Sequence record: MG589383
Length of the DNA stretch: 64,000 nucleotides
DNA from: Shigella phage phi25-307
Direction: 5' to 3' (one strand)
Shown here in pieces: positions 21,541-22,607 of this stretch. The notes beneath the pieces were generated by a model, which saw only the letters and a program-made list of their open reading frames with translations, was not told the DNA's origin and ran no database searches. The translations under genes and the position numbers were made by a program. Position 1 is the stretch's first letter; every line of letters begins with the position of its first letter.

Positions 21541-21666
21541 AGTTTTGTGAAAAAAAAAGTTTTTGTGGAATTCTAGGGCAGGGAGAGGAAATTAAAAAGT
21601 AGGATAATATATTATAAAGGGTATAAACTAAATGATGTGCCTAGAGAGGTCCAGAAAGGCCTAGAT

Positions 21667-21697
21667 ACCAAAAAGCCCCAACCTTTCGGAAGGGGCT
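21667..21697 (-). terminator. intrinsic terminator closing the tRNA/small-RNA transcription unit
   Basis: gcccc...ggggc hairpin plus TTTTTGG on minus strand; near-duplicate of the 5924-5954 terminator. Confidence 0.55.
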
Positions 21698-21748
21698 ATG
21701 CCTTGCGGCAACCTTGTCGGGGTTCCACCTGCTAAGGCAAGTGTTTGT

Positions 21749-21840
21749 ACGAAACGCCGGGATTCGAACCCGGTTATTAAGCAGTTGACGCTACTCAATA
21801 TTTTTAAAAGGCCATATCTCGACCATATCCGAACGTTCCG
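21749..21840 (-). ncRNA. tRNA-like element (possible degenerate tRNA or small stable RNA)
   Basis: Canonical T-arm CCGGGTTCGAATCCCGG followed by 7-nt strand CGTTTCG that pairs with upstream CGGAACG; no convincing D or anticodon arm found by eye; in untranslated stretch downstream of the tRNAs. Confidence 0.3.
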
Positions 21841-22008
21841 TCAAAAACGCTACTCGGCTTACGGCAAAGATATTTCCTCGAATCGATAATTCTGTGCGCC
21901 GTTTCTGCTGTGATGTAAGGGGATATTAACGAATCATAAAGATTTATTAAGACCAGTCCTTACTCAGGGAACATCAGTCCGACGACTTGCCGGTAGCGAC
22001 CCGGCTTC

Positions 22009-22353
22009 TTATTTTGGCATATCATCAATTTGTTCTCGACGCCGACGCCATAGATTAATCGCTTCATAAACACATTCTGCGTTTGGTATATGACGGCAAT
22101 AATATAATGATTCGCGTTTCTGGAACCGATGTTGTAATGGAATTTCGTTTAAAAGGTCTTTACGATCAAAGTATTCAAAACTAGTTAACCCAGAACGATT
22201 TTTAAGGAACTTCCAATGGCCAAATTCATTTTGGAAATAAACGTAATCAGCGTGTTGATATAACGAATTAATCAACCGGTCAGAAATAACTGTATCCTGT
22301 TCATTAAAATAAAACGTTAAATCATGAACTACCAGATAAATATTACCTTTCAT
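22009..22353 (-). CDS. hypothetical protein, 114 aa
   Basis: ORF track frame; start refined to ATG 22351-22353 with GAGGAAAAT RBS so it does not overlap tRNA-Arg. Confidence 0.5.
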   Translation of the reverse strand: MKGNIYLVVHDLTFYFNEQDTVISDRLINSLYQHADYVYFQNEFGHWKFLKNRSGLTSFEYFDRKDLLNEIPLQHRFQKRESLYYCRHIPNAECVYEAINLWRRRREQIDDMPK

Positions 22354-22371
22354 ATTTTCCTCACTTAAAGT

Positions 22372-22448
22372 TGGTCGAGACAGAAGGATTCTAACCTTCA
22401 ACCTACGGATTAGAAGTCCGTTGCTCTATACAATTGAGCTATGCCTCG
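22372..22448 (-). tRNA. tRNA-Arg (anticodon TCT)
   Basis: Hand-folded cloverleaf: 7-bp acceptor CGAGGCA/TGTCTCG, anticodon stem ACGGA/TCCGT with loop CTTCTAA, T-arm GAAGG-TTAGAAT-CCTTC, encoded CCA. Confidence 0.8.
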
Positions 22449-22454
22449 AATATA

Positions 22455-22528
22455 TGACCCAGACCAGATTCGAACTGGTAACCTTTCCCTTATGAGGGGA
22501 CTGCTGCTAACCGTTGAGCTACAGGGCC
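22455..22528 (-). tRNA. tRNA with CAT anticodon (Met or lysidine-Ile type)
   Basis: Acceptor GGCCCTG/CTGGGTC (one mismatch), D-loop with GG, anticodon loop CTCATAA, T-arm ACCAG-TTCGAAT-CTGGT; D and anticodon stems imperfect. Confidence 0.55.
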
Positions 22529-22607
22529 TAAATAACTTTCTATTATGAAAGGCACTTTAGAGCACCTTTGGTAATAGAGTGTATGAATTAATAATAACAC
22601 ATAATTC

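Follow-up and report, generated by a model that had tools for sequence, protein, structure and literature searches.

Two small stable RNAs, rnaC (species 1 RNA) and rnaD (species 2 RNA), were sequenced from bacteriophage T4 in the 1970s. In T4, the tRNA cluster yields a primary transcript that terminates beyond species I RNA and from which the tRNAs, as well as the two stable RNAs, are derived (PMC2330249). RNA-seq of T4-infected cells detects rnaC and rnaD, which were classed as late RNAs (PMC9697503, PMC3014915), and a supporting Northern blot was performed for T4, with an RNAC probe included in the list of methods (PMC9697503). The function of both RNAs is given as unknown (PMC9697503, PMC3014915), and our literature searches found no functional study of rnaC or rnaD. 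Curated T-even records, one of a Mosigvirus among them, already carry annotations for these RNAs. In most of the ~800 related GenBank records, they are either unannotated or overlain by incorrect features ('hypothetical protein' CDSs or 94-nt tRNA calls), and they have no Rfam family.

We analyzed a 64,000-nt stretch of DNA (the window) from Shigella phage phi25-307 (sequence record MG589383), and compared the tRNA locus it carries with that of T4 and other Tevenvirinae.

Results

Layout of the locus and the two tRNAs

The locus is the RB69-type (Mosigvirus) version of the distal end of the tRNA operon of T-even phages. On the minus strand, the order is tRNA-Ile(CAU), tRNA-Arg(UCU), a small ORF, rnaD, rnaC, two hairpins and a terminator. 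An initial annotation of this DNA had placed two minus-strand tRNAs at 22455-22528 and 22372-22448, and the same coordinates were obtained with ARAGORN and the Rfam tRNA model, which scored the CAT-anticodon tRNA (22455-22528) at 52.4 bits and tRNA-Arg (anticodon TCT, 22372-22448) at 71.1 bits. The CAT tRNA is probably an AUA-reading tRNA-Ile of the lysidine type and not a tRNA-Met, because 72 of its 74 nucleotides are identical to the gene annotated as isoleucyl-tRNA in the T4 reference record, though the label Met is frequent for this tRNA. The tRNA-Arg belongs to a different sequence lineage from the T4 tRNA-Arg. Neither ARAGORN nor Rfam found a third tRNA in the 64-kb window. The two tRNAs are indeed fewer than the eight in the T4 annotation, as had been noted initially, and RB69 also has two.

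Between tRNA-Arg and rnaD lies an ORF of 114 aa (22009-22353, minus strand), a homologue of RB69ORF150c (phrog_3355, unknown function). A Shine-Dalgarno-like GAGGA is found 6 nt 5' of its ATG, and its stop codon TAA (22011-22009) falls within the first bases of rnaD. The ~450 nt of untranslated RNA described initially turned out to be too long an estimate: structured RNA space is present, but it covers ~345 nt (22012-21669), and the remainder from 21669 down to 21541 is intergenic DNA with a promoter-like site of the next gene.

The non-coding stretch corresponds to rnaD and rnaC

The stretch 3' of the tRNAs showed 84-96% identity to the T4/RB10 segment annotated as rnaD and rnaC, and positions 21660-22010 (minus strand) aligned over their full length with the T4 and RB10 rnaD/rnaC segments. 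Searches with megablast and blastn placed the stretch on T4-type segments annotated rnaC and rnaD, and rnaC is annotated at the homologous place in the GenBank record of Mosigvirus ATK47. The alignment with T4 rnaC/rnaD that had been proposed as a check thus gave homology over the full length, and the suggestion of an RNA related to these two was borne out by end-to-end alignment, with the exact T4 rnaC ends at 21886 and 21748. The ends given here for both RNAs are predicted ones, transferred from the T4 annotation through the alignment. On this comparison, the non-coding stretch is the orthologues of T4 rnaD and rnaC, RNAs that are already known.

The tRNA finders and Rfam were silent here. 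Over 21660-22010, there was no ARAGORN call, no match to the Rfam tRNA model even at E up to 10, and no match to any Rfam family; over 20500-23500, Rfam at E up to 10 returned the two tRNAs and chance matches only.

rnaD

The rnaD homologue (21892-22012, minus strand, ~121 nt, ends by alignment to the T4 and RB10 annotations) showed blastn identities of 84.5% to T4 and 91% to RB10. It begins with a hairpin, GCCGG-GUCGCUA-CCGGC, at 22005-21989, after which the predicted folds contain a second hairpin, long and irregular, with an invariant 7-bp stem at its base; distal to this stem, the hairpin differs among phages. T4 rnaD (species 2, about 119 nt) has the same place directly 5' of rnaC, which is separated from rnaD here by a spacer of 5 nt. 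About 45 nt at the 5' end and about 25 nt at the 3' end are near-identical in the two RNAs, whereas the middle hairpin has diverged. The 3' end reads CACAG here and CACCA in T4, and rnaD is preceded here by the ORF with the overlapping stop codon, but in T4 by tRNA-Arg.

We found no tRNA-like or permuted-tRNA reading of rnaD, the loop of its 5' hairpin, GUCGCUA, not being a T loop. Six nucleotides of the rnaD loop (CGCUAC) are complementary to GUAGCG in rnaC; this match was also set aside, as it is expected by chance and the two RNAs occur independently. In a T4-like phage evolved on ECOR34, a single SNP in rnaD appeared convergently in all lines (PMC12685909), which hints at a relevance of rnaD to host range.

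rnaC is a tRNA-shaped RNA with non-tRNA arms

The rnaC homologue (21748-21886, minus strand, 139 nt) has the exact T4 ends: the 15-mers at the 5' and 3' ends of T4 rnaC match exactly at 21886 and 21748. It scored 152-165 bits with nhmmer and cmsearch, the covariance model giving 165 bits. Compared with T4 rnaC (139-140 nt), only 2 of 139 positions differ, and length, ends, strand and position ahead of the operon terminator are the same; the setting is a two-tRNA operon here and an eight-tRNA operon in T4.

The predicted fold is a tRNA-shaped four-way junction. Its acceptor stem consists of 7 bp and is formed from the true 5' and 3' ends, with two tandem U.U mismatches in the middle: the 5' strand CGAUUCG (21879-21885) pairs with 21756-21750 in the 3' strand CGUUUCG, which is followed by an invariant discriminator U at 21749 (21749-21756 together). 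Among 26 sequences, acceptor pair 3 is A-U in 12 and G-C in 13. Most phages have U.U at pairs 4 and 5, for which TG1 has U-A/C-G and PM2 has U-A/U-A. After the discriminator U, the phi25-307 sequence continues with ACA and that of TG1 with UCA; kv_tblp2 and PM2 encode CCA at this place. The perfect T arm reported at the outset is real: CCGGG-UUCGAAU-CCCGG at 21773-21757, with a middle pair that is G-C in 12 sequences and U-A in 12 others.

At the position of the D arm is a long arm of 70 nt (21809-21878) with four helices, in which 15 of 18 pairs show compensatory changes; its base is formed by AGG/CCU, and a conserved unpaired UGG (21814-21812) stands right ahead of the closing strand. The anticodon-arm position is taken by a 10-bp stem with a 6-nt loop, CGUCAA (21775-21800; compensatory changes in 8 of 10 pairs), and this arm is without a 7-nt anticodon loop. 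The lack of convincing D and anticodon arms that had been noticed therefore holds for the canonical arms, but two other conserved helices replace them.

Covariation supports the fold

We compared 26 distinct rnaC sequences from nine Tevenvirinae genera. The minimum free energy of the phi25-307 rnaC had a z of -4.55, none of 200 shuffles folding as well, and RNAalifold on 12 phages gave 41 pairs, 27 of them with compensatory changes. When a 43-pair structure was scored on the 26 sequences, 94.0% of cells were paired, compared with ~40% when the partners were slid; compensatory (both-side) changes were present in 29 of the 43 pairs, and no shuffle out of 500 reached any of these measures. Because compensatory changes keep every helix, rnaC is, as judged from sequence comparison, a selectively maintained tRNA-shaped RNA that cannot decode and not a decayed tRNA. 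The initial proposal of a decayed tRNA is not supported: helices that no tRNA has are kept by compensatory changes along with the others, across nine phage genera.

The acceptor-like pairing in the initial annotation was correct to the extent that 21756-21750 has an 8-bp complement at 21841-21834, but there is no covariation there. This internal pairing (21841-21834 with 21756-21749) was rejected: 86.5% of cells were paired, compared with 87.3% for shuffled sequences, and the pairing is disrupted in the CIP9, PS49 and TG1 lineages. The conserved partner of the acceptor 3' strand is the 5' end of the RNA, 21885-21879.

The apical loop of the long arm, UUGACG (21839-21844), is complementary to the loop of the anticodon-like arm, CGUCAA (21785-21790). 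This loop-loop pairing held in 99.4% of cells over the 26 distinct sequences, and it showed two compensatory double changes in separate lineages (C-G to U-A; A-U to G-C). These two events suggest that the two distal loops form a candidate kissing contact.

The 3' flank and coding potential

Between rnaC and the terminator there is a pair of predicted hairpins (21700-21743, minus strand), one of 7 bp at 21743-21726 and the other, GCC-GCAA-GGC, at 21709-21700. Both are kept in T4, and in IME08 the two-hairpin sequence comes directly after rnaD. The intrinsic terminator of the tRNA/stable-RNA operon (21669-21697, minus strand) has a GC stem and a GAAA loop followed by U5; fold and sequence support it at 21697-21669, at the end of the region where it had been placed before, and records of other phages carry a 'terminator' feature at the homologous site. 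A simple consensus scan did not detect it, owing to an internal loop in the stem. We agree that 21698-22008 has no credible ORF: there is no conserved ORF, and both antisense and sense frames gain stops in relatives.

Distribution among phages

In Melville, id4496, TG1, kv_tblp2 and PM2, rnaC lies 3-9 nt from flanking tRNAs. The two RNAs do not always occur together: IME08 has rnaD and lacks rnaC, Dhakavirus and Gaprivervirus have no rnaC beside rnaD, and a search of the TG1 and Melville rnaC loci for rnaD gave no match. The rnaC covariance model matches ordinary tRNAs at 12-30 bits, and its weak matches in viral contigs were discarded as ordinary tRNAs. A tighter rnaC pattern run on viral_contigs yielded only two further members, while the loose pattern TTCGAGGAN{58,70}GGCCTT run on genome_contigs and metagenome_contigs gave chance matches, and nhmmer found no rnaC in the 240 loci among the matches listed. 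The T-arm/acceptor part of rnaC had no sequence match in E. coli. There was no significant similarity between rnaC and the T4 tRNAs beyond the T loop, and thus there is no sign of a recent duplication.

Discussion

Orthology with T4 rnaD and rnaC, together with a tRNA-shaped and maintained rnaC architecture, is the one explanation that best accounts for this locus, and we regard it as very probably correct. Several other explanations were weighed against it. According to one, the 3' element derives from a tRNA gene that has decayed, either as a pseudogene or through an insertion, and is no longer selected as an RNA. The perfect T arm and the acceptor-like strand speak for decay, as does the output of some GenBank pipelines, in which the 3'-terminal two thirds of rnaC are labelled as a tRNA of 94-95 nt ('tRNA-Lys(ttt)', 'tRNA-Met' or 'tRNA-OTHER'). 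However, neither ARAGORN nor the Rfam tRNA model makes a call here, and the internal acceptor pairing behind the pipeline calls lacks covariation and is broken in several lineages; compensatory changes keep all non-tRNA helices in nine genera, the unpaired loops are nearly invariant, and nothing outside the T loop resembles the T4 tRNAs, all of which make decay highly improbable. That the stretch encodes small proteins is, in our judgment, scarcely credible. Mechanical ORFs exist (21698-21889, plus strand, 63 aa; 21661-21798, minus strand, 45 aa; 21960-22073, minus strand, 37 aa), and many GenBank records carry CDS features ('hypothetical protein') over rnaC and rnaD, but none of the six frames over rnaC is open throughout the relatives, substitutions track base-pairing and not codon structure, and the T4 and RB10 curators annotated RNAs here.

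Other explanations accept the RNAs and concern what they do. Perhaps rnaC, and especially rnaD, has no trans function and is cis-acting punctuation, a tRNA-like module that recruits RNase P, defines the transcript end and protects the upstream RNAs, the pieces surviving through exonuclease stalling. Both RNAs are at the operon end right before the terminator, rnaD begins and ends at the adjacent processing sites and has a stem closing it on the 3' side, loss of one or the other RNA occurs, and tRNA-like processing signals of this kind are known, e.g. the plant mitochondrial t-elements (PMC1920247). But the acceptor and T-arm half would be enough to serve as a processing signal, whereas the 70-nt arm, the 10-bp arm, the loops and the linker are conserved as much as the T arm; the 5' ~45 nt of rnaD are invariant while its middle is swapped among three unrelated variants, and other genera carry rnaC in the middle of a tRNA array, where extra punctuation is unneeded. 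We therefore consider a purely cis-acting role unlikely. The case that rnaD, possibly also rnaC, is a base-pairing regulatory small RNA against host or phage mRNAs draws on the invariant single-stranded segments, the single convergent rnaD SNP in all lines on ECOR34 (PMC12685909), and the description of RNAC and RNAD as small regulatory RNAs of unknown function (PMC9697503). According to a review from 2010, T4 had no characterised trans-acting regulatory RNA at that time (PMC3014915), and the most conserved loops of rnaC appear engaged with each other, so that we find regulation by base-pairing quite unlikely.

With rnaC taken as a maintained, non-decoding tRNA-shaped RNA, a route of maturation can be proposed. 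Host tRNA-maturation enzymes would cut the RNAs from the operon transcript, RNase P acting 5' of the acceptor stem of rnaC, and 3' trimming and possibly CCA repair would follow. We infer this tRNA-type maturation from the position of rnaC in tRNA arrays, where its spacers of 3-9 nt resemble those of tRNAs. rnaD would be the structured piece remaining between two such cuts. In the T4 annotation, rnaC begins one base (U) before the first acceptor pair and ends in UA, not CCA; these annotated ends differ from the textbook product of RNase P and the CCA-adding enzyme.

The kissing contact would lock the two long arms, leaving only the acceptor/T-arm 'top half' of rnaC exposed. It is possible, and we put it forward tentatively, that rnaC acts in trans as a tRNA mimic occupying a protein that recognises the acceptor/T-arm half of tRNA; the target may come from the phage itself, or it may be a host enzyme of tRNA-directed defence or processing. 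A fuller version, in which rnaC is a purpose-built non-decoding mimic with its arms locked by the loop kiss, titrating a tRNA-directed host factor, and rnaD is a second RNA relevant to host range, is doubtful in our view. The titrated factor may be, for example, a defence nuclease or nucleotidyltransferase that works on the acceptor ends of tRNAs, or an enzyme of tRNA processing or modification. Against such a function, rnaC and rnaD are each missing from some viable relatives. T4 mutants from which the entire tRNA region is deleted can also grow on laboratory hosts. If true, the mimic and host-range reading would end a period of 50 years in which neither RNA had an assigned function. The covariation-supported rnaC fold, with the correct acceptor pairing and the candidate kissing loop, supplies concrete mutations and probes for studying the function of these abundant late RNAs.

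Compared with a canonical tRNA, rnaC has the end-formed 7-bp acceptor stem on a 5-bp T stem, the 7-nt T loop and the discriminator, but is missing both the D arm (3-4 bp with an 8-11-nt loop) and the 5-bp anticodon stem with its 7-nt loop. The tRNA-like domain of tmRNA, a non-tRNA substrate of RNase P (PMC11143913), is similar in that an end-formed acceptor stem is stacked on a canonical T arm and no decoding anticodon arm is present. Unlike tmRNA, rnaC has neither a tag reading frame nor a pseudoknot ring, is about 140 nt long against about 360 nt, and does not conserve the G3.U70 alanine identity pair; ARAGORN, which does find tmRNAs in unrelated phage contigs, found none in the window. YrlA (Y RNA-like, Rfam RF02553) is, as rnaC, a structured non-coding RNA with a tRNA-like module that also occurs in phages, but the YrlA ends form a Ro-binding stem whereas the rnaC ends form the acceptor stem, and YrlA gave no match over rnaC/rnaD, its sole regional hit scoring 17.8 bits (gathering score, 69) and lying over the real tRNAs. 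The vtRNAs of gammaherpesvirus 68 and mascRNA are also tRNA-shaped, processed by the tRNA machinery and non-decoding, as viral or cellular tRNA mimics that are not aminoacylated, with roles that are poorly understood. These RNAs are eukaryotic, near tRNA size and fold as a cloverleaf with an anticodon-like arm, whereas rnaC is distinguished by its 70-nt arm and the candidate loop-loop contact.

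Results

Neither ARAGORN nor any of 4227 Rfam families (E up to 10) matched 21660-22010, and no canonical tRNA was called there. By blastn, the minus strand of this segment matched 809 phage records. In curated records, for example RB10, RB33 and T4, the matching segment is annotated as rnaC and rnaD, and in the record of Mosigvirus ATK47 the homologous position is annotated as rnaC ('small stable RNA; species 1 RNA'). A four-way alignment was gap-free across both RNAs, and the terminal 15-mers of T4 rnaC were found exactly, the first at 21886-21872 and the last at 21762-21748. 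The alignment placed rnaD at about 22012-21892 and rnaC at 21886-21748, both on the minus strand, with a 5-nt spacer, AAUUA, between 21892 and 21886. After rnaC come two small hairpins (21743-21726 and 21709-21700) and then, at 21697-21669, the terminator with which the initial annotation had ended the stretch. Judged by sequence, position and structure, the stretch belongs to the T4 rnaC and rnaD families, as that annotation had suggested, and the finding is therefore already known.

A megablast search with 21500-22650 matched 757 T-even-type phage records, headed by RB69 and its relatives (Mosigvirus) at 94-98% identity. In the complete 64-kb window ARAGORN called two tRNA genes and no more; both lie on the minus strand and both were noticed earlier: tRNA-Arg-TCT (22372-22448; 71.1 bits with the Rfam tRNA model) and a tRNA with a CAT anticodon (22455-22528; 52.4 bits). 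This is indeed fewer than in T4, the homologous cluster containing eight tRNAs in the T4 reference and two in RB69, and a small tRNA set is therefore normal for this phage group. The CAT tRNA, labelled Met by ARAGORN and by most RB69-type GenBank records, is identical at 72 of 74 positions to the T4 gene annotated as isoleucyl-tRNA and is probably an AUA-reading tRNA-Ile.

We analyzed the secondary structure of rnaC using homologues from Tequatrovirus, Mosigvirus, Kanagawavirus, Karamvirus, Tegunavirus, Gelderlandvirus, Mosugukvirus, a Klebsiella-phage group and IMG/VR contigs. RNAalifold on 12 homologues gave a four-way junction of 41 pairs, 27 of them with compensatory changes. An explicit 43-pair structure was then scored on 26 distinct sequences. 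Standard pairs made up 94.0% of cells, a share that fell to about 40% when partners were slid by 1-3 columns, and both sides had changed in 29 of the 43 pairs. None of 500 shuffles matched this structure on any of five measures, and the 12-sequence set gave the same result. The window rnaC folded alone into the same structure (z = -4.55).

In this structure, the 5' and 3' ends of rnaC form a 7-bp acceptor stem (21885-21879 with 21756-21750). Its third pair is A-U in some phages and G-C in others; pairs 4 and 5 are mostly tandem U.U, but U-A/C-G in TG1 and U-A/U-A in PM2. Adjoining the stem, in the D-arm position, is a 70-nt long arm of four helices with the base AGG/CCU, next to which a conserved unpaired UGG could act as the counterpart of G18-G19. 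An A-rich linker of 8 nt leads to an anticodon-like arm, a 10-bp stem whose 6-nt loop, CGUCAA, leaves it without an anticodon. After one further nucleotide comes the perfect T arm reported previously, of canonical form (CCGGG-UUCGAAU-CCCGG), and the 3' strand of the acceptor stem is followed by an invariant discriminator U and NCA (ACA in the window and T4, UCA in TG1, an encoded CCA in kv_tblp2 and PM2). The initial annotation had seen no convincing D or anticodon arm; canonical forms are absent, but the 70-nt and 10-bp arms stand in their places. It had also seen no credible ORF, and among the homologues no reading frame was conserved over rnaC on either strand.

UUGACG, the loop at the tip of the long arm (21844-21839), is perfectly complementary to the CGUCAA loop (21790-21785). 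Across the 26 distinct sequences 99.4% of cells in this loop pair were paired, compared with 17-51% in slid controls, and double compensatory changes occurred at two positions, in different lineages: C-G is replaced by U-A in the Tegunavirus pair, and A-U by G-C in the Klebsiella-phage group and again in the comparison locus L305. These two events suggest a probable kissing-loop interaction that ties together the two long arms of rnaC.

The acceptor partner proposed initially, ACGGAACG at 21841-21834, was rejected. The complement exists, but its pairing with the rnaC 3' strand showed no covariation beyond shuffles and is broken in the CIP9, PS49 and TG1 lineages; moreover, ACGGAACG sits in helix 6, which itself covaries. 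In T4- and RB69-type rnaC, the complement at 21834-21841 makes 8 bp, versus 5 bp plus two U.U for 21879-21885, and the former may form briefly as an alternative fold while rnaC is being transcribed. The same pairing underlies the 94-95-nt 'tRNA-Lys' or 'tRNA-Met' of some GenBank pipelines: these 'tRNA-Lys(ttt)', 'tRNA-Met' and 'tRNA-OTHER' calls cover the 3' two thirds of rnaC (e.g., 547-640 and 547-641 in the comparison loci L013 and L012). Many GenBank homologues of 21748-22012 have 'hypothetical protein' CDSs over rnaC and rnaD, and few records annotate the two RNAs, neither of which has an Rfam family.

Among 11 phages of four genera, the first ~45 nt and last ~25 nt of rnaD were invariant or nearly so, and the middle occurred as three unrelated variants, each folding into a hairpin. 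The consensus has a 5-bp 5' hairpin, closed by A-U or G-C, and a long irregular hairpin beside the 3' end, closed by an invariant 7-bp stem; with no variation in the conserved parts, covariation was weak. No tRNA-like features were found in rnaD. TG1 and Melville carry rnaC within tRNA arrays, and a search for rnaD in their genera gave no match. In IME08 (locus L009, 1195-1400), VR5 (L019), MN01 (L018) and UPEC01 (L020), of Dhakavirus and Gaprivervirus, rnaD is kept and leads directly into the hairpin/terminator region, with rnaC absent. Thus, rnaD and rnaC are independent modules. The sequence after rnaD in IME08 and VR5 is that which trails rnaC in T4-type phages, as if the rnaC module had been cleanly deleted.

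Between tRNA-Arg and rnaD, the minus strand encodes a conserved 114-aa ORF (22353-22009; RB69ORF150c, phrog_3355, of unknown function) whose stop codon, TAA, falls inside the first bases of rnaD. tRNA-Arg directly abuts rnaD in T4 and RB10; the ORF has the appearance of a cassette that was inserted precisely at this junction. A comparable ORF ends at the same junction in some Tequatrovirus (G29, G3F10 and ZN18), and Gaprivervirus MN01 has a shorter ORF of this kind. A terminator-like site is scored on the plus strand at 21989-22005, where TTCTTATTTT comes after the rnaD 5' hairpin; antisense transcription might be stopped there before it enters the tRNA operon, or the score may be a coincidence of the rnaD hairpin.

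T4 rnaC and rnaD were classed as late RNAs by RNA-seq, with Northern blot support (PMC9697503). Upstream of the tRNA/rnaD/rnaC unit, the late-promoter consensus TATAAATA occurs at 23379-23372 on the minus strand, within the tRNA.2 homologue, and is a candidate source of such late transcription; 19 T4 late-promoter consensus sites were observed across the window versus 8.5 expected. A promoter-like sequence (TTTACA-17-TACTAT, with TG before the -10) at 21511-21539 on the minus strand, just upstream of the e.8 homologue (ORF 21204-21467/21479), resembles T4 early promoters and would account for the non-coding DNA from the terminator to 21541.

Discussion

rnaC has a complete acceptor/T-arm half and in other genera lies 3-9 nt from adjoining tRNAs, from which we infer tRNA-like excision: RNase P would cut the 5' side, followed by 3' trimming, with CCA repair possible. 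The literature of the 1970s-80s agrees with this view. rnaD would then be what remains, as a structured piece, once the transcript has been cut upstream and at rnaC, its terminal stem giving protection. In the published T4 model, a single primary transcript covers the tRNA cluster, terminates beyond species I RNA and gives rise to the tRNAs as well as both stable RNAs (PMC2330249).

The function of rnaC and rnaD was stated as unknown in 2010 (PMC3014915), 2022 (PMC9697503) and 2025 (PMC12685909), the sole hint being a single convergent rnaD SNP that every line of a T4-like phage acquired during evolution on host ECOR34 (PMC12685909). Both RNAs might act purely in cis, as punctuation or a by-product, and this main rival is stronger for rnaD. 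Conservation of rnaC extends beyond the processing half to the whole molecule, and the distal loops seem to be engaged with one another. Our best guess, a tentative one, is thus that rnaC is a trans-acting, non-decoding tRNA mimic that shows its acceptor/T-arm half to a tRNA-binding protein. Beyond the known finding, the comparative rnaC fold, the corrected acceptor pairing and the candidate kissing loop may be useful, as may the widespread mis- or non-annotation in GenBank and the missing Rfam family.

A search of E. coli for the rnaC 3' part gave no match, comparison with T4 tRNAs showed no similarity beyond the T loop, and loose-pattern scans of bacterial genomes and metagenomes gave only chance matches among the matches listed. 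A tighter-pattern scan of viral contigs found two further rnaC members. The IMG/VR contig 3300033066_001150 (L031) carries at 12397-12513, minus strand, a 117-nt tRNA-shaped sequence (27.7 bits with the rnaC model, no ARAGORN call). Its 7-bp acceptor is accompanied by a D-like arm and a T arm, and 28 nt are inserted in the region of the anticodon arm; the sequence could be an interrupted tRNA or a different kind of tRNA-like RNA from phages. ARAGORN also found a tmRNA gene (tag DEMSTMTFADLMDFVGADLAIA*) adjoining arrays of at least 20 tRNAs in L028 (8672-9050) and in L059 (6297-6675), both on the minus strand; these two phage contigs of IMG/VR bear no relation to the window. By ARAGORN and Rfam, rnaC itself is not a canonical tRNA, a tmRNA or a YrlA-type Y RNA. 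Although a member of neither class, it is best likened to the tRNA-like domain of tmRNA and to the non-charged tRNA mimics of viruses.
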